Assembly (NCBI RefSeq): GCF_000025685.1
Contig: NC_013966.1
Coordinates: 510,001 to 542,000 of the forward strand
Reading direction: 5' to 3'
From: Haloferax volcanii DS2
GTDB taxonomy: Archaea; Halobacteriota; Halobacteria; Halobacteriales; Haloferacaceae
Length of the DNA stretch: 32,000 bases
The position numbers and the translations under genes are program-made. Under the pieces are notes generated by a model, which was given only the letters and a program-made list of their open reading frames with translations, had not been told where the DNA came from and ran no database searches. This document shows, one piece after another, positions 5,946 to 32,000 of the stretch. Position 1 is the first letter of the stretch; each line of letters starts with the position of its first letter.

Positions 5946-6113
5946 ATGCGCCGCTTCGACCCAAGCACCGAGACGACGGGCGAGACATCGGGCGCGGAGT
6001 GCCCGTACTGCGGTGGCACGAACACCGTCCGCGAGCACCCGAAAGGGCCGGGACTGTGCCGGTCGATGCACTTCTGTAACGACTGTCAAGAGCCGTTCCA
6101 GCGGTTCGAATAA
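5946..6113 (+). CDS. PaaD C-terminal Zn-ribbon module as a separate 55-aa ORF (not in the supplied ORF track)
   Basis: My translation: MRRFDPSTETTGETSGAECPYCGGTNTVREHPKGPGLCRSMHFCNDCQEPFQRFE. The pattern CPxCG...C(K/R)x(L/M)xxCxxCxEPFxxF matches the C-terminus of bacterial PaaD. Third-codon G/C is about 84 percent. It is in the same frame as 5499..5942, separated only by TGA-GCG. Confidence 0.65.
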   Translation: MRRFDPSTETTGETSGAECPYCGGTNTVREHPKGPGLCRSMHFCNDCQEPFQRFE

Positions 6114-12630: not shown

Positions 12631-12651
12631 GACTCTGAGTTCGTACCTTAG

Positions 12652-12661
12652 CTATTAATAG
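12652..12661. promoter_or_regulatory. Perfect palindromic TATA element CTATTAATAG, candidate bidirectional promoter
   Basis: 10-bp perfect palindrome centred about 26 nt from ATG 12630 (minus) and about 29 nt from ATG 12686 (plus). It is flanked by direct GAGTTCGT repeats at 12637-12644 and 12673-12680. Confidence 0.5.
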
Positions 12662-12685
12662 TTAGGAACACCGAGTTCGTCGGAG

Positions 12686-12925
12686 ATGAGTCCCGACGAC
12701 TCGGCACCCTCGGATTCGACGACTGCGACCGCGACCGCGACGGAGCCAGCGCCGCCGGCCGCGCGCGTCGTGGGGCGCGCGGTGGAAGACGGCTGGACCG
12801 AGGCGTTCGTCTCGCCGCGAAGCCCGACCGGCGCGCTCTTTCAGTTGATGGAGTACCACGACGACTACGGTGAGAAGGGAGCCGACGACGCGTTGTTCGT
12901 CCGCGGCGAGCGGTTGGATTCGTGA
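12686..12925 (+). CDS. Short ORF resembling only the C-terminal strand set of a VOC/glyoxalase (methylmalonyl-CoA-epimerase-like) protein; possible gene remnant
   Basis: 79 aa. GWTEAFVSPRSPTGALFQLMEY resembles the VOC C-terminal motif (AF..P....G.L.EL.E). The N-terminus is low-complexity (TTATATATEPAPPAA). Third-codon G/C is about 86 percent and promoter spacing is good, which argues it is or recently was coding. Confidence 0.45.
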   Translation: MSPDDSAPSDSTTATATATEPAPPAARVVGRAVEDGWTEAFVSPRSPTGALFQLMEYHDDYGEKGADDALFVRGERLDS

Positions 12926-12945
12926 GTCGCCGGTCGGGGAGCCGC

Positions 12946-15322: not shown

Positions 15323-16486
15323 ATGCGAGACGCATACATCGTCGGAGCGGGCCAATCGAAGTACGGCGCGTTTCCGGACGAGAGCTATCGGTCGCTGTTC
15401 GCGACCGCGTTCGAGGAGGCACTGGGGAGCGCCGGCGGTGTCGAGGCGGCCGATATCGACGAGGCCGTCGTCGGGTCGCTCGGCGTCGGCGGTCGGCAAC
15501 TCGGCTTATCGGGACCGGCCGTGACGGAGCACGTCGGCCTCCACGGCGTCCCCTGTTCCCGAATCGAAAACGCCTGCGCAGCGAGCGGCTACGCGGTCAG
15601 ACAGGCGGTGCAGGCGGTCAAAAGCGGGATGGCGGACGTGGCCCTCGCGGGGGGCTACGAGGTCATGACCGACACGAGCGGCGACGTGGCGAAGTACTGG
15701 CTCGGCGTCAGCGGCGAGACGGAGTGGGAGCGTCTCACCGGGACGACGTTCGCGGGCGTCTACGCCCAGATTGCCTCGGCGTATCTCGACGCCTACGACG
15801 CCTCGCCGGACCACTTCTCGAAGGTCGCGGTGAAGAACCACGCGAACGGCGCGAAGAACCCGAAGGCGCACCTCGGCTTCGAGTGCTCGCTCGACGACGC
15901 GCGGAGCGCGCCCGTCGTGGCCGACCCGCTGAATCTCTATCACTGCTGTCCGACCTCCGACGGCGCGGCCGCGGTTCTCGTCGCCAGCGAGGGCGTTGCC
16001 AACGCGTGCGACGACGCGGTCCGCGTCGCGGGCGTGGGTGCCGCCTCCGAGCGCGTCGGCCTCTTCCAGCGCGACAGCTACACCGCCGTCGAATCGTCCG
16101 AGCGGGCCGCCGCGGCCGCCTACGAGATGGCCGGTCTCGGCCCCGACGACGTGGACTTCGCGGAGGTCCACGACTGCTTCGCCATCGCCGAGTTGCTGGC
16201 GTACGAGGACCTCGGCTTCTGCGAGCGCGGACACGCGCCCGAACTGGTCGACTCGGGAGCGACCGAACTCGGCGGCGACCTGCCCGTCAACCCCTCCGGC
16301 GGCCTGAAATCGAAGGGCCACCCCATCGGCGCGACGGGCGCGGGGCAGGTCGTCGAGGCGTTCAAACAACTCACCGGGCGGGCCGGTGATCGGCAAGTCG
16401 CGGGCGCGAGCGTCGGCCTCACCCACAACGTCGGCGGGTCGGGCGGGGCCGCCGTCGTCCACGTCCTCGAAGGGGGTGCGCTATGA
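15323..16486 (+). CDS. SCP-x/archaeal-type thiolase (candidate 3-oxoadipyl-CoA / 3-oxo-5,6-dehydrosuberyl-CoA thiolase, PaaJ role)
   Basis: 387 aa with nucleophile Cys in IENACAASG, the VHDCF motif and GGLKSKGHPIGATG. Its stop overlaps the next start (ATGA at 16483-16486). Confidence 0.88.
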   Translation: MRDAYIVGAGQSKYGAFPDESYRSLFATAFEEALGSAGGVEAADIDEAVVGSLGVGGRQLGLSGPAVTEHVGLHGVPCSRIENACAASGYAVRQAVQAVKSGMADVALAGGYEVMTDTSGDVAKYWLGVSGETEWERLTGTTFAGVYAQIASAYLDAYDASPDHFSKVAVKNHANGAKNPKAHLGFECSLDDARSAPVVADPLNLYHCCPTSDGAAAVLVASEGVANACDDAVRVAGVGAASERVGLFQRDSYTAVESSERAAAAAYEMAGLGPDDVDFAEVHDCFAIAELLAYEDLGFCERGHAPELVDSGATELGGDLPVNPSGGLKSKGHPIGATGAGQVVEAFKQLTGRAGDRQVAGASVGLTHNVGGSGGAAVVHVLEGGAL

Positions 16487-18051
16487 GCGCCGACGACCCG
16501 GCCCGAGCGACCCTCGGAATCGCCGGGGTCGGCGCGTACGTTCCTCGGCTGTACCTCCCCGCGTCGGCCTACCGCGAGGCGTGGGGCAAGGGCGGCGCGC
16601 CGGGCGTCGACCGGGTCGCCGTCGCCGACGCCGACGAAGACACCCTGACGATGGCGACCGAGGCGGGCCGGCGCGCACTCCGCGCGGCCGGGGTTGACGC
16701 CGGCGACATCGACCACCTCGCCCTTGCGACCACGACGCCGCCGAACGACGAGGAGGAAATCGCGGTTCGGCTGGCCTCGCTCCTCGGCGTCGACCCGTCG
16801 GTTCCGACCCGGCAGTTCGGCGGGAGTACCCGCGCCGGCGCGGTGGCGCTGGCGGCGACGGTCGAGGCGACACAGAACGTGGGTGACGGCGCGAGCAGTC
16901 CGAGGCTCGTCGTCGTCACCGACAGCCCGCGAGGAGCGCCCGAAAGCGACGAGGCGGCCGGTGCCGGGGCGGGGGCGACCGCGCTCGTCCTCGCCGAAGA
17001 CGGACCGCTCGTCGTCGACGCCGTGGGCGAGTTCGGTGACCCCGCACCCGGTGCGCGGTTCCGAGGGTTCGGGAGCGCCGAGACGGAGTCCATCGGCGTC
17101 ACGCAGTACGAACGCGACGCCTACACGCGGGCGGTCGTCGGGGCGGTCGAGGCCCTCGGCATCGACACGGCCGAACTGGATCCCGACGCCGTGGCCCTCA
17201 CCGCGCCGGACGGGAAACTCCCGTACCGCGCGGCCAACGCGCTCGACGTCGAACCGGCGCGAATCGCGGCCGGGACCGTCGTCTCGCGAACCGGTGACGC
17301 CGGGGCCGCCGGGCCGGTTCTCGGACTCGCGTCGGCGCTCGACTCCGCGGGCGACGCGGGAGCCGACGAGTCGGACGGCCGGTCCCCCGCGACCTCGGTA
17401 CTCCTCGTCGGCTACGGCGGCGGCGCGGGGGCGACCGCGCTCGCGCTCAGCACAGAGGCGACAGACACCAACGCCGCCGCCAGTTCCGTCGTCCCGGTCG
17501 AGGCGGTCCTCGACGGCGACGTGGAACTCTCGTACGCGGAGGCGCTCCGGCGGCGCGGGACCATCACCGGCGGGGAGCCGGCTGGCGGCGGTGCGTACGT
17601 CAGCGTGCCGACGTGGAAGCGGACGATTCCGCAGCGACACCGCCTCGTCGCCGGCGAGTGCACCGAGTGCGGGGCGCTCTCGTTCCCGCCGGAAGGGGCG
17701 TGTGCCGACTGCGGGTCGCTCGCGGGCTACGACGACGTGACGCTGCCCGGAACGGGAACCGTCGAGGCCGCGACCGCCATCGGACAGGGGGGCGCGCCGC
17801 CGGAGTTCGTCGAGCAACAGCAGCGGGCCGGGTCGTTCCCGGTCGCCGTCGTCGCCTTCGACGGGCCGGGCGGCGAGGGCGGCGAGACCGACGAGCGAAC
17901 CGTGAGCGCGCCCGCACAGGTCGTCCACTCGCCCGCCGGAACGCCCGCAATCGGCGACCGCGTCGAGGCCGTCCCGCGCCGCATCTACGAGCAGGAGGGC
18001 GTCGTCAGGTACGGCTTCAAGGTCGTCCCGACCGAGGCGCGGCGGGAGTAA
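16483..18051 (+). CDS. Fusion protein: HMG-CoA-synthase-like (condensing-enzyme fold) domain lacking catalytic Cys/Glu, plus a DUF35 Zn-ribbon/OB-fold domain
   Basis: The N-terminus (GIAGVGAYVPRLYLPASAYREAWGK...DEDTLTMATEAGRRAL) resembles archaeal HMGCS. The only four Cys in 522 aa are C393/C396/C407/C410 (C-x2-C-x10-C-x2-C, nt 17659-17712). This ribbon is followed by an OB-like C-terminus, which is the DUF35 layout. Confidence 0.8.
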   Translation: MSADDPARATLGIAGVGAYVPRLYLPASAYREAWGKGGAPGVDRVAVADADEDTLTMATEAGRRALRAAGVDAGDIDHLALATTTPPNDEEEIAVRLASLLGVDPSVPTRQFGGSTRAGAVALAATVEATQNVGDGASSPRLVVVTDSPRGAPESDEAAGAGAGATALVLAEDGPLVVDAVGEFGDPAPGARFRGFGSAETESIGVTQYERDAYTRAVVGAVEALGIDTAELDPDAVALTAPDGKLPYRAANALDVEPARIAAGTVVSRTGDAGAAGPVLGLASALDSAGDAGADESDGRSPATSVLLVGYGGGAGATALALSTEATDTNAAASSVVPVEAVLDGDVELSYAEALRRRGTITGGEPAGGGAYVSVPTWKRTIPQRHRLVAGECTECGALSFPPEGACADCGSLAGYDDVTLPGTGTVEAATAIGQGGAPPEFVEQQQRAGSFPVAVVAFDGPGGEGGETDERTVSAPAQVVHSPAGTPAIGDRVEAVPRRIYEQEGVVRYGFKVVPTEARRE

Positions 18052-18110: not shown

Positions 18111-19022
18111 ATGATGGTTCCCGAACCCCTTTCGGTGATGCAAGTGAGTGTACTCGGCGCGGGAACCATGGGTCACGGCATCGCGCAGGTGGCCGCGATG
18201 GCCGGTCACGAGGTGACGATGCGTGACATCGAAGCGGCGTACGTCGACGATGGACTGGACGCCATCGAGTCGAACCTCCGGGGCGGCGTCGACCGCGACA
18301 AGGTGACGCCCGACGAGATGGCGGCGACGCTCGATCGACTCTCGGGGACGACCTCGCTGGAGGCGGCCGTCACCGACGCCGACCTCGTCGTCGAGGCGGT
18401 TCCCGAGGATATGGAACTCAAGCGCGAGACGGTCGCGGAGGTCGAATCCCTCGTCGACGACGACGCCGTCATCGCGTCGAACACGTCGTCGCTCTCCGTG
18501 ACCCAGATACTGAGCGCCCTCGAACGTCCGGAGCGCGGCCTCGGACTCCACTTCTTCAACCCGGTCCACATCATGGGGCTCGTCGAGGTCGTCGTCGCGG
18601 AACAGACGAGCGAATCGACGCTGGCGTTCGCCACCGAGTTCGTCGAGGGCATCGACAAGACCGCCGTCGAGGTCGGTGACTCGCCCGGCTTCGCCTCCTC
18701 GCGGCTCGGCGTCGCCCTCGGCGTCGAGGCCATGCGCATGGTGCAGGAGGGCGTCGCGTCGCCCGCGGACGTCGACACCGCGATGGAGCTCGGGTACAAC
18801 CACCCGATGGGGCCACTCGAACTCGGAGACGCGGTCGGCCTCGACGTTCGCCTCGACATCCTCGAATACCTACGCGAGGAACTGGGCGAGCGCTTCCGCC
18901 CGCCGCAGATTCTCAAGCGAAAGGTCCGCGCCGGCAAGCTCGGCAAGAAGACCGGTGAGGGCTTCTACGTCTGGGAGGACGGCGAAATCGTCGGCGCGCC
19001 CGAGGACGTGATGGACCGATGA
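18111..19022 (+). CDS. 3-hydroxyacyl-CoA dehydrogenase (PaaH-like)
   Basis: ATG 18111 (or ATG 18138, MQVSVLGAGTMG) within ORF 17613..19022. It has the Rossmann motif VLGAGTMGHGIA, NTSSLS, HFFNP and C-terminal dimerisation domain motifs. Confidence 0.9.
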   Translation: MMVPEPLSVMQVSVLGAGTMGHGIAQVAAMAGHEVTMRDIEAAYVDDGLDAIESNLRGGVDRDKVTPDEMAATLDRLSGTTSLEAAVTDADLVVEAVPEDMELKRETVAEVESLVDDDAVIASNTSSLSVTQILSALERPERGLGLHFFNPVHIMGLVEVVVAEQTSESTLAFATEFVEGIDKTAVEVGDSPGFASSRLGVALGVEAMRMVQEGVASPADVDTAMELGYNHPMGPLELGDAVGLDVRLDILEYLREELGERFRPPQILKRKVRAGKLGKKTGEGFYVWEDGEIVGAPEDVMDR

Positions 19023-19900
19023 GCGGTGACGAGCCGAGCGCCGATGACTCGCAGACAGACGACCTCCGCACCGACGGAGGGGAATCGACCGTCGAGTCGG
19101 TCGCCGCCGAGTGCGAGACGGTCGACGCCGTCGTCGACGACCGCGTCGAAGGCGTCGTCACCGTGACGCTGAACCGCCCCGACGCGCGGAACGCGCTCAA
19201 CGCGACGCTCCGGGCTGAACTCAAGCGCGTCCTCGACGCCATCGAAGCGAGCAGCGCCCGCGTCGTCGTCCTCACCGGCTCCGACGAGGCGAAGGCGTTC
19301 GTCGCCGGCGCGGACGTAACGGAGCTCCGCGAGCGCGATATGCTCGAACAGCGCGAGGCGAGCAAGCGACCGCGAGTGTACGAACGCGTCGACGACCTCC
19401 GACAGCCGGTCATCGCCCGCGTAAACGGCCACGCCCTCGGCGGCGGCTGCGAACTGATGCAGGCCTGCGACGTTCGCATCGCCCACGAGCGGTCGAAACT
19501 CGGCCAACCCGAAATCAATCTCGGCATCATGCCCGGCGGGGGCGGCACCCAGCGACTCGCGCGTCTCGTCGGCGAGGGACACGCCATGCGACTCGTCCTG
19601 ACGGGCGAGCTCATCTCCGCCGAGGAGGCCGCGGACATCGGCCTCGTGGAGGAGGTCCACGGCGACGAGACCTTCGACGAGCGGGTGTACGAACTCGCAG
19701 AGCTGATGGCGACGAAGAGCCCCGTGGCCCTGGAGTTCGCCAAGAAAGCGGTCAAGGCCGCCTCGCGGACAGACCTCGAACAGGGCATCGAGTACGAGGC
19801 GGAGCTGTTCGCCCAACTGTTCGGGTCGCCAGACAAGGACGAGGGTATCGACGCGTTCTTCGAGGACCGCGAACCCGAATGGCACGAGCGCGAGCGATAG
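19019..19900 (+). CDS. Enoyl-CoA hydratase (crotonase, PaaF-like)
   Basis: ATGA overlap with the dehydrogenase gene. Both catalytic Glu contexts are present (GGGCELMQACD and QPEINLGIMPGGGGTQRL). It has an acidic N-terminal extension of about 40 aa. Confidence 0.9.
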   Translation: MSGDEPSADDSQTDDLRTDGGESTVESVAAECETVDAVVDDRVEGVVTVTLNRPDARNALNATLRAELKRVLDAIEASSARVVVLTGSDEAKAFVAGADVTELRERDMLEQREASKRPRVYERVDDLRQPVIARVNGHALGGGCELMQACDVRIAHERSKLGQPEINLGIMPGGGGTQRLARLVGEGHAMRLVLTGELISAEEAADIGLVEEVHGDETFDERVYELAELMATKSPVALEFAKKAVKAASRTDLEQGIEYEAELFAQLFGSPDKDEGIDAFFEDREPEWHERER

Positions 19901-20454
19901 ACTCCTCAACCACGCCGTTCGAACTACTCGAACGGCTTCGAAACCGCCGCGACCGTCCGGCGAGAACTCGCAGCGCAGGCGCGAGCGCTAGTTTCACGCC
20001 GTGAACACGACACCGGGAGCGGCCCGCCCGCGAGCGAGTCCGAAATCGGGGGCGCGCCGGTGGAGGACCGGGCATTCTGTCCTTTCGAACGCGAGTCCGT
20101 ACTCGAGCGACGCCGCCGTATCGGCAGTCGCTATCGATGACCGTCTCGCGCGCGAACCGAACACCGAGTCTCGAATGACGGGGATACGGCGGTTTCGGGG
20201 CGAACGAGACCCAGCAACGATGCGGCCGGCCCACAGGACGGCAGCCGGACGGTTCGTCTCCCACGCCACAATCCGTGACAGGTGTAATTCTGTAATTGCT
20301 CGCGTCCTGCCGCGTTAATCTACAATAGTATAATAAGAATATAACCACATTATGTTCGAGTGGTTCGAACAGTAATCGTCGCAACCGAATCGTCGTCTCA
20401 GCTCCTCGAAAGCGTGATTCTCCGGCTTCGAACGGGAGAGTACTCCCTGAATGA

Positions 20455-20471
20455 GTTCGAACAGTTCGAAC
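20455..20471. promoter_or_regulatory. Tandem palindrome GTTCGAAC-A-GTTCGAAC (copy downstream of iclR)
   Basis: Exact 17-mer, identical to 21314-21330. Each 8-mer is a perfect palindrome. It lies about 42 nt beyond the iclR stop. Confidence 0.5.
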
Positions 20472-20512
20472 CGTTCCGCAGCTTCGGTTCGCCGGCGGGA
20501 CGAGACACCGGG

Positions 20513-21283
20513 TCAGGAGAAGTTGAGGTTGATTTCGACCTCGTTGGCCGCGCCGAGGAGGAGGTCCGCGAGGTCGCCGGTCATTCGGTCGCCCCGAAGC
20601 CGGTTCGAGGGCCCCGAGATGCTTATCGCTCCGACGGGGCGGCCCTCGTTGTCGGTGACGGCGACGCCGACGGCGTGGAGTTTCGGGACGATTTCCTCGC
20701 GGTTGAGCGCGAACCCGCGCTCGCGAATCGTCGCCAGCTCCTCGAAGAGCGCGTCGGGGTCGGTTATCGTCTGCGGCGTCTTCGCCGGGAGGCCGTGTCG
20801 GTCGACGATGTCGCGGACGCGCTCGTCCGGGAACGCCGACAGGATGGCCTTGCCGGCGGCGAGTTGGTGGAGGTACGAGCGCGTCCCCTCCCGCGCTGGC
20901 GTCCGCACCGAGTGCGCGCCGGCCGCGCCGTAGAGGTGGAACCCGCGGCCCTGCTCTTCCGTGACGCACCACACTTTCTCGCCGGTCTGCTCGGCGAGTT
21001 CGTCCAGTTTCGGCTTGGCCACCTCGTACAGTTGGTGCTGGTCGCGCGCGTAGATGCCGAAGTCGAGGAGCCGAAGGCCGACCCGGTAGCCGTCGTCGTC
21101 GGGGACGACGAACCCCTCGCGTTCGAGCGTCTTCAGATGCCGGTGGACCGTGCTCTTGGCCAATCCGAGCTCCGAGGCGAGCCCCGTCGGCCCCATCGGT
21201 CCCCCCGATTTGAGCTGTTCGAGGATACCGAGCGACGTGGCGGCCGTCGTCACCGGTCGGCGCTGTTCGTCGTCTGTCATCAC
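20513..21283 (-). CDS. IclR-family transcription regulator
   Basis: 256 aa with an N-terminal winged HTH (LASELGLAKSTVHRHLKTLEREGFV) and a C-terminal IclR effector domain. TATA TTTATCAC (reverse of 21303-21310) lies about 24 nt upstream of the ATG. Confidence 0.9.
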   Translation of the reverse strand: MMTDDEQRRPVTTAATSLGILEQLKSGGPMGPTGLASELGLAKSTVHRHLKTLEREGFVVPDDDGYRVGLRLLDFGIYARDQHQLYEVAKPKLDELAEQTGEKVWCVTEEQGRGFHLYGAAGAHSVRTPAREGTRSYLHQLAAGKAILSAFPDERVRDIVDRHGLPAKTPQTITDPDALFEELATIRERGFALNREEIVPKLHAVGVAVTDNEGRPVGAISISGPSNRLRGDRMTGDLADLLLGAANEVEINLNFS

Positions 21284-21313
21284 TTATCGTCGGTGTTCAT
21301 TCGTGATAAATCT

Positions 21314-21330
21314 GTTCGAACAGTTCGAAC
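21314..21330. promoter_or_regulatory. Tandem palindrome GTTCGAAC-A-GTTCGAAC abutting the iclR TATA box (candidate IclR autoregulatory operator)
   Basis: Exact 17-mer, immediately upstream (BRE side) of the iclR TATA. It is followed by CTCGAAC half-sites at 21345-21351 and 21366-21372 with roughly helical spacing. It sits in the iclR / ethD divergent spacer. Confidence 0.55.
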
Positions 21331-21422
21331 GTCAGTTCCACCCACTCGAACGCCCTCGACGGCCGCTCGAACCGCGAGTCAGCGATAGAGCAAAGTAACG
21401 TCGGATTGGATCGCAGACGTGC

Positions 21423-21743
21423 ATGATTAAATTGGTGAATATGCTCGTCCGGGACGACGACTACACGCACGAGGAGTTCGTCGAGCGGTGGCGGGGGAGC
21501 CACGCGGAACTCGCGAGGGAGTTTCCGGGGCTCGTGAAGTACGCGACGAGCGTCCCGACCGACCCCGAACGGTCCGAGTACGACGGTATCGTCGAACTCT
21601 ACTTCGAGGACATGGCCGCTCTGAAGGCGGCGTTCGACTCCGAGGTCGGTCAGCGCGTGAACGCCGACGCGGCGGCGTTCACCGACATGGAACGGGGACC
21701 GACGCTCTACGTCGAGGAGACGGTTCACCTCGACAGGTCCTGA
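21423..21743 (+). CDS. EthD-domain protein (dimeric alpha/beta-barrel family)
   Basis: 106 aa. PGLVKYATSVPTDPERSEYDGIVELYFEDMAAL closely parallels both repeats of the protein at 25853..26575. Confidence 0.78.
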   Translation: MIKLVNMLVRDDDYTHEEFVERWRGSHAELAREFPGLVKYATSVPTDPERSEYDGIVELYFEDMAALKAAFDSEVGQRVNADAAAFTDMERGPTLYVEETVHLDRS

Positions 21744-21747
21744 ATCT

Positions 21748-23442
21748 ATGAACACGAGCGAACGACTCGTCGAGAGCCTCGAACGGCTCGGCGTCGAGCG
21801 AATCTTCGGCTACCCCGGCGGCCGCGTCATCGAACTGTTCGACCTGCTGCCCGAGTCGGACATCGACCTCGTGCGCCCCCGCGACGAGCGCGAGGCGAGC
21901 GTCATGGCCGAGATGCACGGTCGGTTGACGGGCGAACCGGGCGTCCTCGCCGGGCAGGGACCGTGGATAGGAAGCCTCGGCCTCATCGGACAGATGGAGG
22001 CGCGCCTCGCCTCGTCGCCGGTGGTCACCATCACCGAGGCCTCCGAGCGCGGGGCCTACTCGACGCTCGCGCCCTACCAGCAGTCCCGCGGCGACTACGG
22101 CGGCCTCGAACTCCCGAAGATTCTCGACGCCGTGACGAAGGAACACTGGTTCCCGCGGACCCCGACCGAGACGGTTCGGAGCCTCCAACTCGCGTTCAAA
22201 CACGCCGTCGCGGGTCGACCCGGCCCGACGGCGGTCATCCTCGACGGCGACGCCGTCACCGAACCGTTCCCGGACGAGTCCGTACCGGCGGTCTGGGACG
22301 ACGAAACGCAGACCAGAACGTGGACCGCCGCGCCGACGGCGCGCGACATCGCCGCCGCCGCCGAGGCGCTCGACGCGGCCGAGCGACCGGTCATCGTCTC
22401 GGGCAACGGCGTCCACGCGTCGGGCGCGTACGACGAACTCGCGGCGGTCGCCGAGGCCTACGAAGCCGCGGTCGTCACCTCCTACCTCGGGAAATCGACG
22501 TTTCCCGAGACGCACCGCCTCGCCGGCGGCGTCATCGGCTCGTTCGGTCACGAGGGCGCGAACCGACTCGTCAGCGAGGCCGACGCGCTCCTCGTCGTCG
22601 GCTGTCGCATGAACCCGATGGACACCAACTGGCAGGCCCCCGACTTCATCCGCCCCGACGAGCAGACGATTATCCACGCCGACATCGACCCGCGGAACGC
22701 CGGATGGGTCTACCCCGCCGACGTGGGGCTCATCGGTGACGCGTCCGAATCGCTGCGCGAACTCGCGGCCGCCGGCGGCACCGACAACGACTGGGCAGAA
22801 GACCGAGCGCGGGAGGCCCGCGAGTCGTTTTACGCGCCCGAGTGCGGGTCGGACGCCGCGCCAATCCTCCCCCAGCGGGCCGTCAAGGAAATCGAGCGCG
22901 TCGTCGACGAGGACACCGTCGTCACCGCCGACTCGGGGAACAACCGCTTTTGGCTGCTCAACTACCTCCAGGTGCCCGCCGTGCAGACGTACTACGGTTC
23001 GGGCGGCGTCGGCGGCATGGGGTGGGCGACGCCCGCCGCGGTGTCGGCCGCGCTGGCGACCGACAAACACGTCGTCGGCGTCGCGGGCGACGGCGGCTTC
23101 GCCATGACGATGACGAGCGTCGAGACGGCGGTCGAACACGGCGTCGCGCCGACGTTCGTCGTCCTCAACGACACCAGCCTCGGGATGGTCAGACAGATGC
23201 AGCACGTGCCCGACGACATCGCGGGCGTCGAGTTCCACGACACGGACTTCGCGCGGGTCGCGGAGGCGTTCGGCGCGACGGGCGTCCGCGTCGAGACGCC
23301 GGGCGAACTCGGCGACGCGCTCGCCGACGCGAAGACGCACGGCCTCCCGGCGGTCATCGACGCCCGTATCGACCGCAGTCAGGACATGGCCGCGACGCTC
23401 CAGTCGTCGTTCTACGCGTCGGTCGGGGGGCTCCACGAATAG
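21748..23442 (+). CDS. Thiamine-diphosphate-dependent enzyme (acetolactate-synthase / 2-ketoacid-decarboxylase superfamily)
   Basis: 564 aa with the PYR-domain motif IFGYPGG, catalytic Glu context RDEREASVMAEMHGR and the ThDP/Mg motif GDG-x24-ND (VAGDGGF...VVLNDTS). It starts 4 nt after the ethD stop. Confidence 0.88.
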   Translation: MNTSERLVESLERLGVERIFGYPGGRVIELFDLLPESDIDLVRPRDEREASVMAEMHGRLTGEPGVLAGQGPWIGSLGLIGQMEARLASSPVVTITEASERGAYSTLAPYQQSRGDYGGLELPKILDAVTKEHWFPRTPTETVRSLQLAFKHAVAGRPGPTAVILDGDAVTEPFPDESVPAVWDDETQTRTWTAAPTARDIAAAAEALDAAERPVIVSGNGVHASGAYDELAAVAEAYEAAVVTSYLGKSTFPETHRLAGGVIGSFGHEGANRLVSEADALLVVGCRMNPMDTNWQAPDFIRPDEQTIIHADIDPRNAGWVYPADVGLIGDASESLRELAAAGGTDNDWAEDRAREARESFYAPECGSDAAPILPQRAVKEIERVVDEDTVVTADSGNNRFWLLNYLQVPAVQTYYGSGGVGGMGWATPAAVSAALATDKHVVGVAGDGGFAMTMTSVETAVEHGVAPTFVVLNDTSLGMVRQMQHVPDDIAGVEFHDTDFARVAEAFGATGVRVETPGELGDALADAKTHGLPAVIDARIDRSQDMAATLQSSFYASVGGLHE

Positions 23443-23531
23443 CGCGCGGTGACGAGTCGGCCGTCTCGGCCGCGCTCGGTGGTCCGCGTTCGGGAAACAC
23501 TTTTCTCGCGCGCAGGGAGAACTACGATACC

Positions 23532-24494
23532 ATGTCATCATCGACCGTGATGGTTACGGGCGGGACCGGTTTCATCGGCTCGTACGTCGCGTCGGACCTC
23601 GTCGCGGCCGGCCACGACGTGGTCGCCTACGACCGCTCGACCGACCCGCGCATCCTCGACAGACTCGGCGTCGCCGACGACGTGACGATACGCCGCGGCG
23701 ACGTGACCGACCCGACCGACGTGTTCCGGGCGGTGCGAGAGATCGGCGCGACGCACATCGTCCACCTCGCGGCGCTCCTGACGACGACGGCGCGGGAGAA
23801 CCCGCGGGCCGCGCTCGACGTGAACGTCCAAGGGACGAACAACGTCTTCGAGACCGCGCGCGCCCTCCCCGAGCAGGTCGAGCGCGTCGCGTGGGCGTCG
23901 TCGGCGGCGGTGTACGCCCCGCCCGCGAACTACGGCGGCGACTTCGTGACCGAGTCCGACCTCGTCTACCCCGATACGCTCTACGGGGCGACAAAGGAGT
24001 ACAACGAGCATCAGGCCCGAGTCTACTACGAGGACTTCGGCGTCTCGCACGTCGCGCTCCGACCGACGGTCGCCTACGGCCCGTACCGCGAGACCGGCGG
24101 GTCCGCGTTCCTCGCGAACATCGTCGAGAAACCGGCGCTCGGCGAGCCGTTCAGCGTCGACTACGGCGACCAGGTCATCGACTGGCAACACGTCCGCGAC
24201 ATCGCGCAGGCGTTCCGCAAGGCGACGTTCGTGCCCGAAGACGACCTCTCCCAACGCGTCTACAACGTCCGCGGGGAGTTGGCGACGATTCGCGAGGCCG
24301 CGGAGACGGTACGGCGGCTCCTCCCCGACGCCGACCTCACGGTCTCCGGCGAGGGCGAACTCCCGTGGACCCAAGAACTCGACGTGACGCAGGCGCAAGC
24401 CGACCTCGGCTACGACCCGGAGTACGACCTCGAAGCCGGGTTCCGCGACTACGTCAACGTGCTTCGGAAGGAACACGGGTTGGAGCCAGTCTGA
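23532..24494 (+). CDS. NAD-dependent epimerase/dehydratase (extended SDR)
   Basis: ATG 23532 within ORF 22842..24494. It has the Rossmann motif VTGGTGFIGS and catalytic YGATK (YxxxK). Confidence 0.88.
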   Translation: MSSSTVMVTGGTGFIGSYVASDLVAAGHDVVAYDRSTDPRILDRLGVADDVTIRRGDVTDPTDVFRAVREIGATHIVHLAALLTTTARENPRAALDVNVQGTNNVFETARALPEQVERVAWASSAAVYAPPANYGGDFVTESDLVYPDTLYGATKEYNEHQARVYYEDFGVSHVALRPTVAYGPYRETGGSAFLANIVEKPALGEPFSVDYGDQVIDWQHVRDIAQAFRKATFVPEDDLSQRVYNVRGELATIREAAETVRRLLPDADLTVSGEGELPWTQELDVTQAQADLGYDPEYDLEAGFRDYVNVLRKEHGLEPV

Positions 24495-24533
24495 GCCGAG
24501 AGCCGACGGGCCGAAACGTCGCCGTGGAGTCGG

Positions 24534-24743
24534 TCACGGCCGCCGAGCGTCGTCGGCGCCCTCGGTCTCGGGACCGTCCAGCAGGTCGCGGATATCGTCG
24601 GGCGACAGCAGGTCGACGAGGCTCTCGCCCGAGTCGTAGCGCTCGCGCTCGTCGGGCGTGAGATAGTCCGCGAGGTCGCGTTCTGTGAGCAGTTCCTCGA
24701 GTCTGTCGTCGAGGTCGTCCGGGTCGTAACCGGGGATGACCAT
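24534..24743 (-). CDS. Small highly acidic hypothetical protein (69 aa)
   Basis: Complete ORF with a halophile-like acidic composition. TATA-like TTATAA lies about 24 nt upstream of the ATG on the minus strand. No recognisable domain. Confidence 0.45.
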   Translation of the reverse strand: MVIPGYDPDDLDDRLEELLTERDLADYLTPDERERYDSGESLVDLLSPDDIRDLLDGPETEGADDARRP

Positions 24744-24821
24744 ATCACCGGATTGTCGCGAGCGCCCTTATAACACGGCACGCGTCGCGTTTCCGACGAG
24801 TTCGGAGGGCGAGCCGCCCGC

Positions 24822-25193
24822 TCACCCCACGACGACGCCGTCGTCCTTCGCGTTCGGCGCGCCGACGACGAACACCTCGCCCGCCTCGACACAGCGCAGT
24901 TGCCGAACCTCGTCGGGCGAGACGACCACGAAGTCGCCCGGTTCGAGGTCGAGGGCCTCGGTCTCCTCGCCGTCGTCGCCGGCGAAGGCGAGTTCGAACG
25001 CGCCGGAGAGGACGTGATACAGTTCCTCTTGTTCGCGCTGGTAGTGCATCGGTCCCGACCCGCCCGCATCGAACGACCAGACCGACGGGCGCATCTTCCG
25101 CGGGCGAAGCTCGTAGCCGACGGCCTTGACTCGGGCGTCGGCGTTCTCCACGTCGTGCGGTTCGAGGTCGGCGAGGTTGACGTGTTCGTACAT
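24822..25193 (-). CDS. Cupin-fold protein with a degenerate metal motif
   Basis: 123 aa. Cupin motif 1 reads GPMHYQREQEELYHVLSG (HxH becomes HxQ). Motif 2 reads PGDFVVVSPDEVRQL, with no His at the usual position. TATA-like CTATAAT lies about 23 nt upstream. Confidence 0.72.
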   Translation of the reverse strand: MYEHVNLADLEPHDVENADARVKAVGYELRPRKMRPSVWSFDAGGSGPMHYQREQEELYHVLSGAFELAFAGDDGEETEALDLEPGDFVVVSPDEVRQLRCVEAGEVFVVGAPNAKDDGVVVG

Positions 25194-25258
25194 CGGCGCG
25201 AGCTACGAAGGGCGGGATTATAGCTGTGGTGACGATTGCCGTGGGAACTGCTGTCGCG

Positions 25259-25849
25259 CTACTGCGTCTGGGAGTACTCTTCGACCCACTCCTGTAAGCT
25301 GATTCCCATCGCGGCCTGCGTGATGGCGTTCGAGGACGCCGAGTTCGCGCTCTTGACGAGTTCGGCTTCGAGCGTCCGGGTCGGAATCTCACCGATAAAG
25401 TGGGGAATGGCGCGCTGGACCGCGAGCGGGCAGCCGACCTCGTGGGCGAGGGCGTAGCCCGAAAGCGAGTGCGGAATCTCCCCGCTGGCGTACTCCGGGT
25501 CGGGGTCGTCGAGTCTGTCGTCGTCCACGAAGTCGACGTACTCGTAGCACTTGCCCACGTCGTGGAGGAGGCAGGCCGCGCGGACCACGTCGAAATCCGG
25601 GTCCGCGCCGTGGAAGTCCCGCTGTTCCTCGGCGGCGCGGACGGCGATGCGGGTCACGCCGCGGACGTGCTCGACGTTCGTCACCTCGTGGATGTTCCAC
25701 GCGTAGGGGATGTCTGCGATGTCTCGCCAACCGCCGCGGGCGAGACCGAGACACCAGGCTTCTCTGACCCTGTCGCGGAGGCCGTCGTCCTCGATGTCGT
25801 CGAGTTCGGGGAAGGCGACCTCGACCTGCGCGCGGTAGTCGTGCGACAT
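25259..25849 (-). CDS. HD-domain metal-dependent protein
   Basis: 196 aa with the HD dyad in ACLLHDVGK and further His at about aa 54, 61, 127, 136 and 150. It starts 3 nt after the stop of the double-EthD gene, so the two are probably co-transcribed. Confidence 0.78.
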   Translation of the reverse strand: MSHDYRAQVEVAFPELDDIEDDGLRDRVREAWCLGLARGGWRDIADIPYAWNIHEVTNVEHVRGVTRIAVRAAEEQRDFHGADPDFDVVRAACLLHDVGKCYEYVDFVDDDRLDDPDPEYASGEIPHSLSGYALAHEVGCPLAVQRAIPHFIGEIPTRTLEAELVKSANSASSNAITQAAMGISLQEWVEEYSQTQ

Positions 25850-25852
25850 CGC

Positions 25853-26575
25853 TCAGCCCCCGCTCGCGTCTTTCTGAACCGTCTCGCGGCCGACGAACCG
25901 CGGACGGTCACCGATGGAGAGGAAGTTGTCGACATCTTCGCGGGGCGCGTTCGCCTTCGGGTGGTCGGGGTCGTAGTCGCGCGAGGACTCGTGGCCGAGG
26001 CCCGCCCGGAGCGCGTCGAGGCTCTCGAAGTAGAGTTCTGCGACGCCGTCGAACTCGGCGCGTTCGGGGTCGGTCGGGACGACGCGGGCGTACCGGACCA
26101 CGCCGGGAATCTCGCGGGCGAGGGGGACGTGGGTGTTCGCCCAGTGGTCGAGGAACTCGTCGTGGCTCATCCCGTCTTTGCGGACGAGAAACGCCGAGTG
26201 CTTGTAGAGGCCCGTCGTGTCGCCGCCGGTCTCGTCTTTCTCGACGACCTCCTCGCCGATGATTCGAGGGCGTCGCTCGACGTCGAGGAAGTTGTCCACG
26301 TCGGCTCTCGCTTCTCTCGCCGTCCCCTTCGCCGGGTCGTAGTCGCGCGAGCCCCCGCCGCCGAGCGCGTCGTGGAGGGCGTCGAGGTCGTCGAAGTAGA
26401 GTTCCGCGAGACCGTCGAACTCGGAGGCCTCGGCGTCGACGGGGAGGACCGTCTGGTAGCGGACGACGCCCTCGATGTCGCGGGCGATGGGCGTGTGGTT
26501 GTCCTGCCAGTACGTGACGAACTCGTCGTGACTCATCCCCGCCTTGCGGACAGGCAGGGCTACGTGCTTGTACAT
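25853..26575 (-). CDS. Tandem double EthD-domain protein
   Basis: ORF 25853..26845 trimmed to ATG 26575 (MYKHVALPVRKAGMSHDEF...). Two ~120-aa halves are clearly homologous (MYKHVALPVRKAGMSHDEF / LYKHSAFLVRKDGMSHDEF; FDGLAELYFDDLDAL / FDGVAELYFESLDAL). TATA TTTATTTT lies about 27 nt upstream. Confidence 0.8.
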   Translation of the reverse strand: MYKHVALPVRKAGMSHDEFVTYWQDNHTPIARDIEGVVRYQTVLPVDAEASEFDGLAELYFDDLDALHDALGGGGSRDYDPAKGTAREARADVDNFLDVERRPRIIGEEVVEKDETGGDTTGLYKHSAFLVRKDGMSHDEFLDHWANTHVPLAREIPGVVRYARVVPTDPERAEFDGVAELYFESLDALRAGLGHESSRDYDPDHPKANAPREDVDNFLSIGDRPRFVGRETVQKDASGG

Positions 26576-26675
26576 GCGTACACCTGCCGATTCGCGTATG
26601 AGAAAATAAATCATGAGGTGTGTTCGCAACGCCCATCTACAACAAATTAATGTGATAGTCACGAGTGGTGGGCGT

Positions 26676-27950
26676 ATGCCTTTCCACGAGCGGGGGTTCA
26701 TGAGCGGGACCCGCGGGACGATGGCCGTCGACTGGGAACAGCGCATCGACGTAAAGCGGATGCGCGAGGAGCGGAAGGACCGCGCCCTCTCGCGGATGCG
26801 CGATGCGGGTCTCGGGAGTATGCTCCTCATCGACGACCCGAACATCCGGTACGTGACCGGGTTGGCGATGACCGGCGGGTCGGGCGCGGACCACTACTCG
26901 CTGCTTCTGGAAGACGGCACGGTCGTCCACTGGGACACCGCCGACCACGCGAGCAATCAGCGGTACAACTGCCCGTGGCTGACCGACGTTCGCTACGGCT
27001 GTCCCGGACTGGGGAACGTCCCGCGGGCGTCCGGCCGCGACTCGGCCCGGTCGTTCCTCCTCGACAAGATGGCCCAGACCGTCGTCGACGCCCTCGACGA
27101 GTACGGCCTCGCGAACGAGGCGATGGGCATCGACACCGGCCACGCGGGGCTGCTCGACGCCTTCGAATCGAAGGGCATCGACGCCCGGCCGGCCGAGTGC
27201 GCGGCGGTGATGGAAGACGCCCGAAAGACCAAGACCGAAGACGAAATCGAATGTCTGCGACAGGTCGCGGCCATCTGCGAGGCGGGCTTTCAGACCATCG
27301 CGGAGAACGCGAAACCGGGCGCGCGGGAGTCGGAGGTGTGGGGCGACGCCGTCCGCGAACTCTGGCGGCACGGCGCGATGGCGCAGGGCGGCTACCTCAC
27401 GTCGGGGCCGAACACGTGGCCGAAGCACCAAGCGAACACGACGGACCGGCTGATTCGCCCCGGCGATCTCGTCTACGCCGACTTCTACAACGTCGGCTAC
27501 CTCGGCTACCGGTCGTGTTACTACCGGACCTTCTCGATGGGCGAGCCGACCGACGAACAGCGCGACGCCTACGAGACGGCCCGCGACAACCTCTACGCCG
27601 TCCTCGACGAAATCGAGCCGGGGAAGACCACCGACGAAATCGCGGCGGCGTTCCCGGACATGGCGGGCGAACACGCCGACTGGTACGGCGCGGACGACCA
27701 CTGGCAGCTGACGACCAACCACTGGGCCCACGGCCTCGGCCTCCAACTGTACGAGGTGCCGCTCATCTGGCGCGGCCTCTCGCCGGACCATCCCATAGAA
27801 ATCGAGGCGGGGATGACGATGGCCGTCGAGACCCAGGAACCGGCGGGGAGACAGGGCGTCCGCGTCGAGGAGATGGTCGTCGTCCGCGACGACGGCGTCG
27901 AACTCCTCAGCCAGTGGCCCGTCGAGGAGATAACGACTATCGAGTACTGA
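26676..27950 (+). CDS. M24-family (creatinase / Xaa-Pro peptidase fold) protein with an altered metal site
   Basis: ATG 26676 is chosen because TATA AAATTAAT ends about 24 nt upstream; ATG 26700 and 26721 are alternatives. It has a Creatinase_N-like N-domain and a pita-bread C-domain. The ligand positions read D (YADF), C (GYRSC), H (AHGLGL), E (AVETQ) and E (VRVEEM). Confidence 0.85.
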   Translation: MPFHERGFMSGTRGTMAVDWEQRIDVKRMREERKDRALSRMRDAGLGSMLLIDDPNIRYVTGLAMTGGSGADHYSLLLEDGTVVHWDTADHASNQRYNCPWLTDVRYGCPGLGNVPRASGRDSARSFLLDKMAQTVVDALDEYGLANEAMGIDTGHAGLLDAFESKGIDARPAECAAVMEDARKTKTEDEIECLRQVAAICEAGFQTIAENAKPGARESEVWGDAVRELWRHGAMAQGGYLTSGPNTWPKHQANTTDRLIRPGDLVYADFYNVGYLGYRSCYYRTFSMGEPTDEQRDAYETARDNLYAVLDEIEPGKTTDEIAAAFPDMAGEHADWYGADDHWQLTTNHWAHGLGLQLYEVPLIWRGLSPDHPIEIEAGMTMAVETQEPAGRQGVRVEEMVVVRDDGVELLSQWPVEEITTIEY

Positions 27951-28171
27951 TTTCTGACACGGCAGAGGAACAGTTCACAAATTTTGAAACTTGTGGAATT
28001 TGTTTCCTACATTCGTCTGAGAACAGTTTCAACAGACATCAGCTCGTCAGGAGAGATTACGGTTCGGAATATCGAACGAATAGTCAGTAGTATAGAATAT
28101 CTATAACGGCTGGATACGGCGGGCGAGGATTCCCCGTGTCCCCGAGCCAGCGCCCAGCAGACCGGCCGACG

Positions 28172-29779
28172 CTACTCCGCCTTGCCGTCCTCGCGGTCCC
28201 GGCGGCGTGCGTCGGCGTCGCGGTCGTCGGGGTCGCCGTAGCCGCCGCCGCCCGGCGTCCGAACCGTGACAGTCGTCCCCGCGGGCACGTCGCGGGTCGT
28301 CTTCGACGGGACCGCCTCGCCGTCGACGAGATTCTGTCCCGTCGCCCCGTCCTCGCCGCCGGCGATGCCGCGGGGCGCGACCCGCCGGCGCTCGGTGAGA
28401 AGCGAGACGGTCGCGTCGGCCTCGACCGTGACCGACCGGACGATGCCGAGGCCGCCGCGGAACTCGCCGCGGCCGCCGCTTCCCTCGCGGAGGCCGTACG
28501 CCTCGACGAAAAGCGGGTACTCGGCTTCCAGCGCCTCGACCGGCGTGTTGAGCGTGTTGGTCATCCCGACCTGCACGCCGCCCATACCGTCGCCGCCGGC
28601 GCGGCCGCCGAAGCCGCCGCCGATGGTCTCGTAGTAGGTGAAGCCGTCCGAACCGCCGACGCGACTGCCGATGGTCAGGTTGTTCATCGTCCCCTGTCCC
28701 TGCGCGGGGACGCGCTCGGGGGCCGCGTCGGCGAGCGCCGCGAAGACCACGTCGGTCACGCGCTGGCTGGTCTCGACGTTGCCGCCGACGACCGCCGCGG
28801 GGGCGTCGGGGTTGAGGAGTGAGCCGTCGGGGACCTCGACCGAGATGGGGTCGTAACAGCCCTGGTTCGGCGGTATTTCGGGGTCGGTGACGCAGCGAAC
28901 GACGAAGTACACCGCGCTCTTGGCGACCGCGAGCGGCGCGTTGACGTTGCCGGCGACCTGGTCGGCCGTGCCGTCGAAGTCGAACGCGACGGTGTCGCCG
29001 TCGACCGTCGCGGTCACCTCGACTGGGATGTCGTCGTCGGTCACGCCGTCGCCTTCGAGCACGTCGCGGGCGCGGTACTCGCCGTCGGGCAGGTCGCGCA
29101 GTTCCGCGGTGACGCGGTTCCGGGAGTAGTCCATCACGGCGTCGAACGCCGCGAGAACGCGGGACCGACCGTGTTCCCCGACGAGGTCGGCCAGTCGCTC
29201 CTCGGCGCGCTCGTTCGCCGCGAGTTGCGCGCGGATGTCGGCGCGGCGCTCGCCGGGGTTGCGGACGTTGGCGAGGAGGAGCGACAGCACGTCGTCGTTG
29301 GTCTCGCCGCCGGCGACGAGTCTGACCGGCGGGAGTCTGAGCCCCTCCTGATAGATTTCGCGCGCGCCGGCGGGCATGCTGCCGGGCGTCATCCCGCCCA
29401 CGTCGGCGTGGTGCGCCCGCGAGACGGCGTAGCCGAGCACCTCGCCGTCGACCGAAAGCGGCGAGACCATCGTCACGTCGGGCAGGTGCGTCCCGCCCTC
29501 GAAGGGGTCGTTGAGGACGAACACGTCGCCCGGTTCCGGGCCGTAGTCGAGGACCGTGTCGACGGCCTCGGGCATCGCGCCGAGGTGGACCGGGATGTGT
29601 TCGGCCTGCGCGACGAGGCGGCCGTCGGCGTCGAACAGCGCCGTCGAGCAGTCGCGGCGCTCCTTGATGTTCGGCGAGTACGACGAGGTGATGAGCACCT
29701 GTCCCATCTCCTCGGCGACGCTCTCGAACTGGTTGCGCATGATTTCGAGCGTCACGGGGTCGACCTCGCGGTCGCTCAT
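28172..29779 (-). CDS. Hydantoinase B / oxoprolinase-family subunit (HyuB-like)
   Basis: 535 aa with an N-terminus (DPVTLEIMRNQFESVAEEMG...SPNIKERRDCSTALFD) typical of HyuB, N-methylhydantoinase B and acetone/acetophenone carboxylase alpha-type subunits. ATGA overlap with the upstream HyuA gene. Confidence 0.9.
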   Translation of the reverse strand: MSDREVDPVTLEIMRNQFESVAEEMGQVLITSSYSPNIKERRDCSTALFDADGRLVAQAEHIPVHLGAMPEAVDTVLDYGPEPGDVFVLNDPFEGGTHLPDVTMVSPLSVDGEVLGYAVSRAHHADVGGMTPGSMPAGAREIYQEGLRLPPVRLVAGGETNDDVLSLLLANVRNPGERRADIRAQLAANERAEERLADLVGEHGRSRVLAAFDAVMDYSRNRVTAELRDLPDGEYRARDVLEGDGVTDDDIPVEVTATVDGDTVAFDFDGTADQVAGNVNAPLAVAKSAVYFVVRCVTDPEIPPNQGCYDPISVEVPDGSLLNPDAPAAVVGGNVETSQRVTDVVFAALADAAPERVPAQGQGTMNNLTIGSRVGGSDGFTYYETIGGGFGGRAGGDGMGGVQVGMTNTLNTPVEALEAEYPLFVEAYGLREGSGGRGEFRGGLGIVRSVTVEADATVSLLTERRRVAPRGIAGGEDGATGQNLVDGEAVPSKTTRDVPAGTTVTVRTPGGGGYGDPDDRDADARRRDREDGKAE

Positions 29780-31791: not shown

Positions 31792-32000
31792 CAGAACACC
31801 CCCATATCGGTCGCGACCGTATAGAGCGTTCGGAGGCCGAGCCAGACGACGACGAGCGTCACCAGCCCGCCGACGACGTTCTGGAGCGTGGAGTTGGCGT
31901 ACGACCCGAGGATGTCGCGGTCGTTCATCACGTAGATGAGGAAGACGGCGACGATGGGAAGCAGGACGCCGTTGGCGACCTGCGCGAAGACGATGGCCTG
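31791..32000 (-). CDS. C-terminal 69 aa of an Nramp/MntH-family divalent-metal transporter (partial, runs off the window)
   Basis: My translation of the minus strand: QAIVFAQVANGVLLPIVAVFLIYVMNDRDILGSYANSTLQNVVGGLVTLVVVWLGLRTLYTVATDMGVF*. The pattern QV.NG.LLP....FL....ND...(M/L)G...N is Nramp-like. The TGA stop shares its A with the hyuA ATG (TGATG). It is not in the ORF track because no start lies in the window. Confidence 0.6.
   Translation of the reverse strand, partial: QAIVFAQVANGVLLPIVAVFLIYVMNDRDILGSYANSTLQNVVGGLVTLVVVWLGLRTLYTVATDMGVF

Follow-up and report, generated by a model that had tools for sequence, protein, structure and literature searches.

Predicted operators of an IclR-family regulator bracket its gene on a Haloferax megaplasmid

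IclR-family repressors usually bind inverted repeats that overlap a promoter (PMC5814911), and the operator of Pseudomonas putida PcaR, GTTCGATAATCGCAC, combines GTTCGA and TCGxAC arms (PMC12455658). The haloarchaeal family members XacR, GacR, RhcR and MscR, each of which is encoded inside the catabolic cluster that it controls, have been described as activators and regulate sugar or sugar-alcohol catabolism (PMC11519228, PMC10838023); literature searches for any haloarchaeal IclR operator, or for the motif reported below, found no description in the accessible texts. Here we analyze a stretch of 32,000 nucleotides of Haloferax volcanii DS2 DNA (contig NC_013966.1; hereafter the window), in which iclR, the gene for an IclR-family protein, is surrounded by six copies and one half-site of a 17-bp dyad with consensus GTTCGAAY-N-RTTCGAAC. 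All of these elements are found in non-coding DNA, either in the spacer between iclR and the divergent ethD gene or in the gap between iclR and the convergent enoyl-CoA hydratase gene, and comparison across haloarchaea suggests that the dyads are probably operators of the adjacent IclR protein.

In kind, the predicted operator is an ordinary one of bacterial type. Like those of PcaR (PMC12455658) and Streptomyces coelicolor PobR (PMC5814911), it is an inverted repeat with a single central base that overlaps core promoter elements, either of the gene for the regulator or of a neighbouring catabolic gene, and site position would likewise decide between an activating and a repressing role. The PcaR arms (GTTCGA...TCGCAC) nearly match those found here (GTTCGA...TCGAAC); however, the Haloferax dyad spans 17 bp (8-1-8) and the PcaR site 15 bp (7-1-7, with a spacer 2 bp shorter), and the promoter is an archaeal one, made of a TATA box and a transcription factor B recognition element (BRE), instead of the sigma-70 type that accompanies bacterial IclR-family operators. 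The protein itself is closer to Thermotoga TM0065 (1mkm, E = 9e-30), its nearest solved structure, than to PcaR (8eju, E = 1e-14). Assignment to the PcaR/PobR-type box (GTTCGAT-N-ATCGxAC) was rejected, as the arms are shared but the spacing is not 7-1-7 and PcaR is a distant match. Although the window IclR belongs to the same family and class of organisms as XacR, GacR, RhcR and MscR, its gene is part of a cluster of the phenylacetate type and has a promoter site that looks repressive. What is unusual about the locus is a conserved cluster of operators past the gene, where four extra sites distinguish it from the PcaR and PobR systems, and a second, family-wide palindrome (pal2) that accompanies them.

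An earlier note, made from the letters of the window alone, had listed the palindromic 8-mer GTTCGAAC at positions 19917, 20363, 20455, 20464, 21314 and 21323, a 17-mer (GTTCGAACAGTTCGAAC) identical at 20455–20471 and 21314–21330, and near-copies at 20084, 20426, 19937, 21345 and 21366; all of these are present, and a single further copy of the 8-mer, at 24992, had been missed. Its manual estimate that about nine of about 15 TTCGAA hexamers gather around iclR was also accurate (15 in the window, nine of them within 19918–21329). The true unit returned by a repeat finder is not the 8-mer but the 17-bp dyad GTTCGAAC-N-GTTCGAAC, loosely GTTC-N9-GAAC, which is perfect at 20455 and 21314, degenerate at 19917 and 20354 and weak at 21335. 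The spacings of 9, 10 and 10 nt that the note had called roughly helical are internal to such dyads, and the actual dyad-to-dyad spacing is 21 nt (21314 and 21335, with a half-site at 21366).

Clustering of the motif around iclR is far beyond chance. The window contains seven copies of GTTCGAAC where 1.5 are expected, six matches to GTTC-N9-GAAC (0.9 expected), five of which flank iclR, and six matches to the 17-mer with at most three mismatches (0.26 expected); in none of 100 shuffles was any of these counts reached. The copy at 24992, which falls within the coding region of a cupin gene, and a position weight matrix match at 6095, at the end of the paaE coding sequence, were judged to be chance copies. 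A wider count, which like the shuffling had been proposed in the earlier note, covers the near-identical Haloferax lucentense plasmid pSVX82-2 alone, which was assembled in full for this purpose (285,035 nt; 98.5% identity to the window over the 4.5 kb tested). Six of its 31 copies of GTTCGAAC lie inside the 1.46-kb iclR region (Poisson P = 6e-9 given the density elsewhere), and its four dyads of at least 25 bits all flank iclR of this locus.

The same arrangement recurs in other haloarchaea. Of 80 loci of GTDB species genomes, retrieved via alignment of IclR orthologues, 38 were taken as orthologous, a choice guided by synteny (with the ethD, thiamine-pyrophosphate (TPP) enzyme, HD-domain, M24 peptidase, LLM oxidoreductase, amidohydrolase and hydratase genes as markers) and by an identity of at least about 51% with the window IclR, which left 42 paralogous ones. 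At a cut-off of 18 bits, a dyad is found within 170 nt upstream of iclR, adjoining its TATA box, in 26 of the 38 orthologues, within 250 nt after the stop codon in 22 and at both places in 19; none of the 42 paralogs has either, and the background rate is 0.0045 per 250 nt. Bracketing of iclR by copies of the motif, to which the earlier note had drawn attention, is itself conserved in orthologues, with dyads at the promoter and past the stop codon in Haloferax, Halogranum, Natronorubrum, Natrialba, Natronococcus, Natrarchaeobius and other genera. In several genera, the upstream dyad always lies 3–4 nt from a TATA-like box that is itself ~24 nt before the ATG, a layout that reads GTTCGAACTGTTCGAAC-aga-TTTATC in Haloferax and GTTCGAATAGCGGGAAC-aggc-TTTTG in Natrialbaceae. 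A second upstream dyad is placed 21 nt away in Haloferax and 30–31 nt away in Natronorubrum, Natronococcus pandeyae and Natrarchaeobius; such phased tandem dyads would fit oligomeric binding, whether by a dimer or by a tetramer.

Dyads, pal2 and promoter elements are essentially the sole conserved blocks in alignments of the Haloferax gap and spacer. Short palindromes are able to propagate as repeats, and GTTCGAAC is found 25 times elsewhere on pSVX82-2, which might suggest that the cluster is a functionless chance feature or the remnant of a repeat or mobile element; we give this next to no credence, because in addition to the failure of all 100 shuffles to reach the observed motif counts, the dyads keep their place with respect to iclR from genus to genus within sequence that is not itself conserved, and the comparative data effectively refute it.

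As to the protein that reads the dyads, a dyad of 17 bp but of different sequence occupies the same promoter position in many paralogs (for example GTCCAGTATTACTGGAC, GTTTCCTAATAGGGAAC, GTTCGGCCATGCGGAAC and GTCCGAATAGCTTGGAC), and the type of arm tracks the recognition helix: GTTCGAA arms go with helix AKSTVHRHLKTL, xTCC...GGAx arms with ARSTIHRHLLTL and TTTC...GAAA arms with SKSSVHKHLRSL, as expected if each protein binds the dyad beside its own gene. This co-variation is the strongest argument that GTTCGAAC would be read by the adjacent IclR and not by another factor; together with the retention of the sites in orthologues and their absence from all 42 paralogs, it supports the proposal of the earlier note that they are operators of this protein with a putative autoregulatory role. 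A different transcription factor, of which iclR would be a target, is an improbable reader. The window does encode a second helix-turn-helix regulator, beside paaA, but the dyad travels with iclR through differing neighbourhoods, and in loci such as L009 and L025 no other regulator gene was identified close to iclR; moreover, paralogs carry dyads of their own that track their recognition helices, and sites of at least 25 bits occur nowhere else on pSVX82-2.

Two other IclR paralogs of pSVX82-2 (191162–193079 and 202754–204484 of the record, corresponding to L085 13291–15208 and 24883–26613) are each followed by an unannotated gap of 0.9–1.1 kb, and in both the promoter dyad of the gene recurs shortly past its stop codon (GTTAACAACT; GTTCAC...GAGAAC). 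Their bracketing is the same as that of the iclR studied here, and loci L052 and L067 also repeat their own dyad past the stop. As a general rule, however, matched upstream/downstream pairs are only modestly better than mismatched ones (at least 14 of 15 identities in 7% versus 1.6%), and the signal comes mainly from the orthologue group of the studied iclR.

At the iclR promoter, IclR dimers or a tetramer would bind the tandem dyads of the iclR/ethD spacer. The right arm of the proximal one, dyad 1, covers the BRE, so that its occupancy would hinder binding of transcription factor B (TFB) and thereby repress iclR; this overlap suggests autorepression. The distance of the TATA box from the ATG (~24 nt) implies a leaderless iclR mRNA. 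On the other side of the spacer, alignment of six Haloferax loci (the window and L001–L005) conserves the ethD 5' end, an invariant 17-nt block, the two dyads and the iclR TATA box. The block, presumably the ethD promoter, has related copies in Halogranum and other genera and is unique on pSVX82-2; its conservation exceeds the need of a TATA box alone. In every Haloferax species a GTTCGA element is found ~10 nt from it, contributed by dyad 2 in L003–L005 and by the extra half-site in the window, L001 and L002, where a 20-nt insertion confined to these three loci carries the latter. A distal dyad or half-site in this position could exert positive or negative control over the Haloferax ethD-TPP operon. 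The control of the divergent ethD operon that the earlier note had proposed is accordingly plausible in this genus but is not conserved, since the ethD-TPP operon of Natronorubrum is separate from iclR and lacks a preceding dyad of at least 14 bits, which leaves iclR itself and the region after it as the conserved targets.

The Natronorubrum case is one of several points that weigh against the adjacent IclR as reader of the dyads and repressor of its own gene. Because the scoring matrix was trained on matches from the orthologous loci, the scores obtained there are partly circular, although neither the positions nor the zero among paralogs are; 12 of the 38 orthologues have no upstream site of at least 18 bits, some of them carrying a diverged version of the site (for example ATTCAAGCTACTCGAAC in Haloarcula). 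Autorepression is suggested only by the position of the site, and the characterised haloarchaeal IclR regulators introduced above are activators. Finally, no standard role exists in the IclR family for sites located between the 3' ends of two convergent genes.

These latter sites occupy the 612-nt gap between iclR and the enoyl-CoA hydratase gene, whose only conserved blocks in Haloferax are four dyads (A at 20455, B at 20354, C at 20074–20090 and D at 19917) and pal2. Dyad C (TTCGAA...GAAC in the alignment) reads GTTCGAAAGGGCGGAAC in pSVX82-2, and dyad D is kept at the end of the gap in six of six Haloferax loci. Although the gap is shorter in Natrialbaceae, the same order is kept there: the iclR stop codon is followed by a strong dyad (27–30 bits, the best of the locus), pal2, 55–100 nt of non-conserved sequence, a weak inverted dyad at the end where Haloferax has dyad D, and the stop codon of the convergent gene. 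In most non-Haloferax orthologues that have a counterpart of dyad A (1–70 nt past the stop codon), it is the strongest site, with 27–30 bits. Since the next called gene is convergent in most orthologous loci, no annotated gene has the dyads past iclR in its promoter; and because site distances differ between species, no fixed helical phasing is kept.

Auxiliary operators that act through DNA looping are familiar from LacI (O1/O2/O3), GalR and DeoR, and from the two IclR boxes at Escherichia coli aceB. As in those systems, the operator is present in several copies, one at the promoter and others hundreds of bp away, and the regulator is of an oligomer-forming kind; unlike in them, the distal sites lie past the 3' end of the regulator gene, ~0.8–1.4 kb from the promoter and between convergent genes. 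Our best guess is that the same IclR protein would bind the four gap dyads, which might loop out the iclR gene by pairing with the sites at its promoter, an arrangement with which the site layout is compatible, or might instead serve as roadblocks between the two convergent transcription units.

Because dyads A and D directly follow stop codons and can each fold into a 7–9-bp stem, they could also be viewed as RNA hairpins that terminate or stabilize the transcripts of iclR and of the hydratase operon at their 3' ends. The hairpin that the earlier note had placed at the end of the enoyl-CoA hydratase gene does exist (19914–19936, with a 9-bp stem; -17.5 kcal/mol for 60 nt, z = -2.1), but it merely follows from the symmetry of the dyad, any copy of which can fold in this way. 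An RNA role is very unlikely: the same sequence precedes both TATA boxes of the iclR/ethD spacer, a position outside the expected transcripts of the two genes, and a function in RNA cannot explain the family of sites. In addition, no T-run follows the stems, the arm is conserved as sequence and not via compensating changes, and folding z-scores are modest (-2.2 to +0.1). The class of intrinsic terminators was likewise rejected, with no site combining a GC-rich stem and a T-run in the terminator scan and the same sequence present upstream of both promoters; the accompanying scan of the region for bacterial-type promoters, which does not cover archaeal ones, found none either.

A further alternative, possible but in our judgement doubtful, concerns the role of the downstream sites and not the identity of the protein that binds them: the dyads past the gene, the AT-rich stretch beside dyad B and pal2 would together serve as the regulated promoter region for an unannotated transcript that evolves fast, either a small RNA or one running antisense to iclR or the hydratase operon, which IclR would control instead of looping DNA or blocking transcription. 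Dyad B is indeed followed by a TATA-like stretch, which may be a promoter in either direction, and in L004 and L005 the sequence after this dyad (GAACAGATTTTAG and GAACAGATTTGTG, respectively) mirrors the layout of the iclR promoter (GAACAGATTTATC), reproducing GAACAGATTT...; L006 shows a close succession of dyad, TAAAAG box and pal2, and the predominance of the downstream dyad in most non-Haloferax orthologues that have one also speaks for this reading. However, several Natrialbaceae gaps lack a TATA-like box after the dyad, no AT-rich box was found at a fixed distance from pal2, and nothing between the gap sites is conserved, within either Haloferax or Natrialbaceae. Alignments of the Haloferax gap and of the Natrialbaceae stretch after pal2 revealed no conserved open reading frame (ORF) or RNA; Rfam searches gave, with an E-value cut-off, only a sub-threshold chance match over 19700–21600 and nothing at gathering score over 144 kb of the replicon.

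Candidate genes of the gap were considered individually. ORFs of at least 20 amino acids were rejected, being arginine-rich, unlike the acidic proteins of halophiles, and the two largest are without a Pfam match. A 17-codon Natronorubrum ORF (M..PFP*) was also rejected, because its conserved end is the dyad itself. A 7-codon ORF at 20352–20375 (ATG TTC GAG TGG TTC GAA CAG TAA), which overlaps dyad B directly after the AT-rich stretch, is probably a by-product of the dyad sequence.

pal2, the other conserved element past iclR, is a 20-bp tripartite palindrome, TTACA-N4-TA-N4-TGTAA, whose copy in the window (20276–20295) has one mismatch. A search pattern that allows A/G and C/T variants matches 65 times in IclR-centred loci totalling ~690 kb, each time with a spacer of 10 nt; for the exact form, rough base-composition arithmetic of our own gives an expectation of ~0.06. 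The central TA is not part of the search pattern, yet its two positions are nearly invariant (61 and 62 of 63), and the inner positions do not covary; an RNA hairpin was rejected on this ground, which points to pal2 as a putative protein site. Of 62 copies, 52 lie at most 600 nt from an IclR-family gene, paralogs of less than 45% identity included, and more often downstream than upstream. pSVX82-2 provides an unbiased test that argues against an artefact of IclR-centred sampling: it carries four strict copies (46725, 192140, 204037 and 208480) in addition to the one-mismatch copy at the iclR studied here, each of its four IclR-family genes has pal2 110–470 nt past the stop codon, and the remaining copy lies past a tyrosine recombinase gene.

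pal2 is distinct from the CsmR motif TATCA-N4-TGATA, and a literature search found no description of pal2 itself. An all-against-all BLAST of small ORFs around the 62 sites recovered only flanking known genes, iclR antisense frames and, near three distant copies, a gene of the RdfA (rod-determining factor A) family. These three copies of pal2, far from iclR, lie ~140–180 nt upstream of RdfA-family genes (Pfam E = 1e-64 to 1e-72), namely L006 7020–7613 (- strand), L007 near 7914 and L015 5099–5728 (+ strand).

pal2 is a more novel lead than the dyads. An operator repeat past the stop codon is seen in the studied orthologue group, in the two pSVX82-2 paralogs and in L052 and L067, and we tentatively consider that IclR-family genes of Halobacteria might carry a conserved 3'-flank module, in which the gene's own operator, repeated past the stop codon, and a generic pal2 bound by a common factor would together make up an autoregulatory unit that is looped or insulated, or else act as a checkpoint between convergent units. 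To our knowledge, such a layout has not been described for any transcription-factor family.

Coordinates of the dyads, promoter elements and genes are collected in Table 1. The window is high-GC haloarchaeal DNA that carries, by domain and gene annotation, a phenylacetate-type catabolic island, and its IclR is 97% identical to a Haloferax IclR.

Table 1 Sites and genes of the window at and around iclR, with positions counted from the first letter of the window
Feature	Position	Strand	Description
paa core and CoA ligase			paaABCDE and paaK; part of the island
Beta-oxidation genes			thiolase, DUF35 protein, 3-hydroxyacyl-CoA dehydrogenase and enoyl-CoA hydratase (19019–19900)
Enoyl-CoA hydratase stop codon	19898–19900		
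Non-coding gap	19901–20512		612 nt, between the convergent iclR and enoyl-CoA hydratase genes
Dyad D	19917–19933		GTTCGAACTACTCGAAC; 16 nt past the enoyl-CoA hydratase stop; forms with its flanks a 9-bp hairpin (19914–19936)
Dyad C	20074–20090		weak; ATTCTGTCCTTTCGAAC on the + strand, GTTCGAAAGGACAGAAT on the - strand
pal2	20275–20296		GTGACAGGTGTAATTCTGTAAT; one mismatch from ATTACA-N4-TA-N4-TGTAAT
AT-rich, TATA-like stretch	20316–20350		beside dyad B
Dyad B	20354–20370		GTTCGAGTGGTTCGAAC; conserved in six of six Haloferax loci
Dyad A	20455–20471		GTTCGAACAGTTCGAAC; 41 nt past the iclR stop codon
iclR	20513–21283	-	256 amino acids; IclR helix-turn-helix (PF09339) and IclR_C (PF01614) domains
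iclR TATA box	21304–21309	-	TTTATC; 24 nt before the ATG, spacing conserved in orthologues
Dyad 1	21314–21330		GTTCGAACAGTTCGAAC; ends 3–4 nt from the iclR TATA box, overlapping the BRE position
Dyad 2	21335–21351		GTTCCACCCACTCGAAC; 21 nt from dyad 1
Half-site	21366–21372		CTCGAAC (GTTCGAG on the - strand); ~10 nt from the presumed ethD promoter block
17-nt block	21382–21398	+	GGCGATAGAGCAAAGTA on the ethD strand (GCGATAGAGCAAAGTAA in the window); 25–41 nt before the ethD ATG; invariant in six of six Haloferax loci
ethD	21423 or 21441 to 21743	+	divergent from iclR
TPP enzyme gene	21748–23442	+	after ethD; ethD-TPP operon
Oxidoreductase gene			among the genes divergent from iclR, with ethD and the TPP enzyme gene
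Further island genes			EthD, HD-domain, cupin, M24 peptidase and hydantoinase

In several genera and in varying gene orders, orthologous iclR genes are repeatedly linked to a set of genes found at 21423–31998 of the window: ethD and the genes for the TPP enzyme, an oxidoreductase, an HD-domain protein, a double-EthD protein, an M24 (creatinase-like) peptidase, an LLM oxidoreductase and an amidohydrolase. This set looks like a conserved, uncharacterised catabolic module beside the paa genes. Elsewhere in the island, comparison of 12631–12945 with 13346–13946 of L081 shows that ~286 nt between the LLM oxidoreductase and MaoC genes are missing from the window; in pSVX82-2 this stretch holds a VOC-family gene, which is hence absent or truncated in the window. 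The DUF35/zinc-ribbon (ChsH2-type) gene at 16483–18051 has a GC content of ~75%, compared to ~67% in its surroundings, and encodes a product of 522 amino acids of which the zinc-ribbon domain match spans only ~30 residues.

In summary, the dyads described here provide a testable operator sequence for a haloarchaeal IclR-type regulator, and make the window IclR a candidate to regulate part of the phenylacetate-type catabolic island of Haloferax megaplasmids. The comparative rule that emerges from them, a 17-bp dyad 2–4 nt upstream of the regulator's own TATA box, may predict the operators of many paralogs. Standard models of the IclR family do not explain the presence of predicted operators and of a family-wide palindrome past the gene, between convergent genes, and this layout could shed light on how small regulatory units are insulated or looped in archaea.

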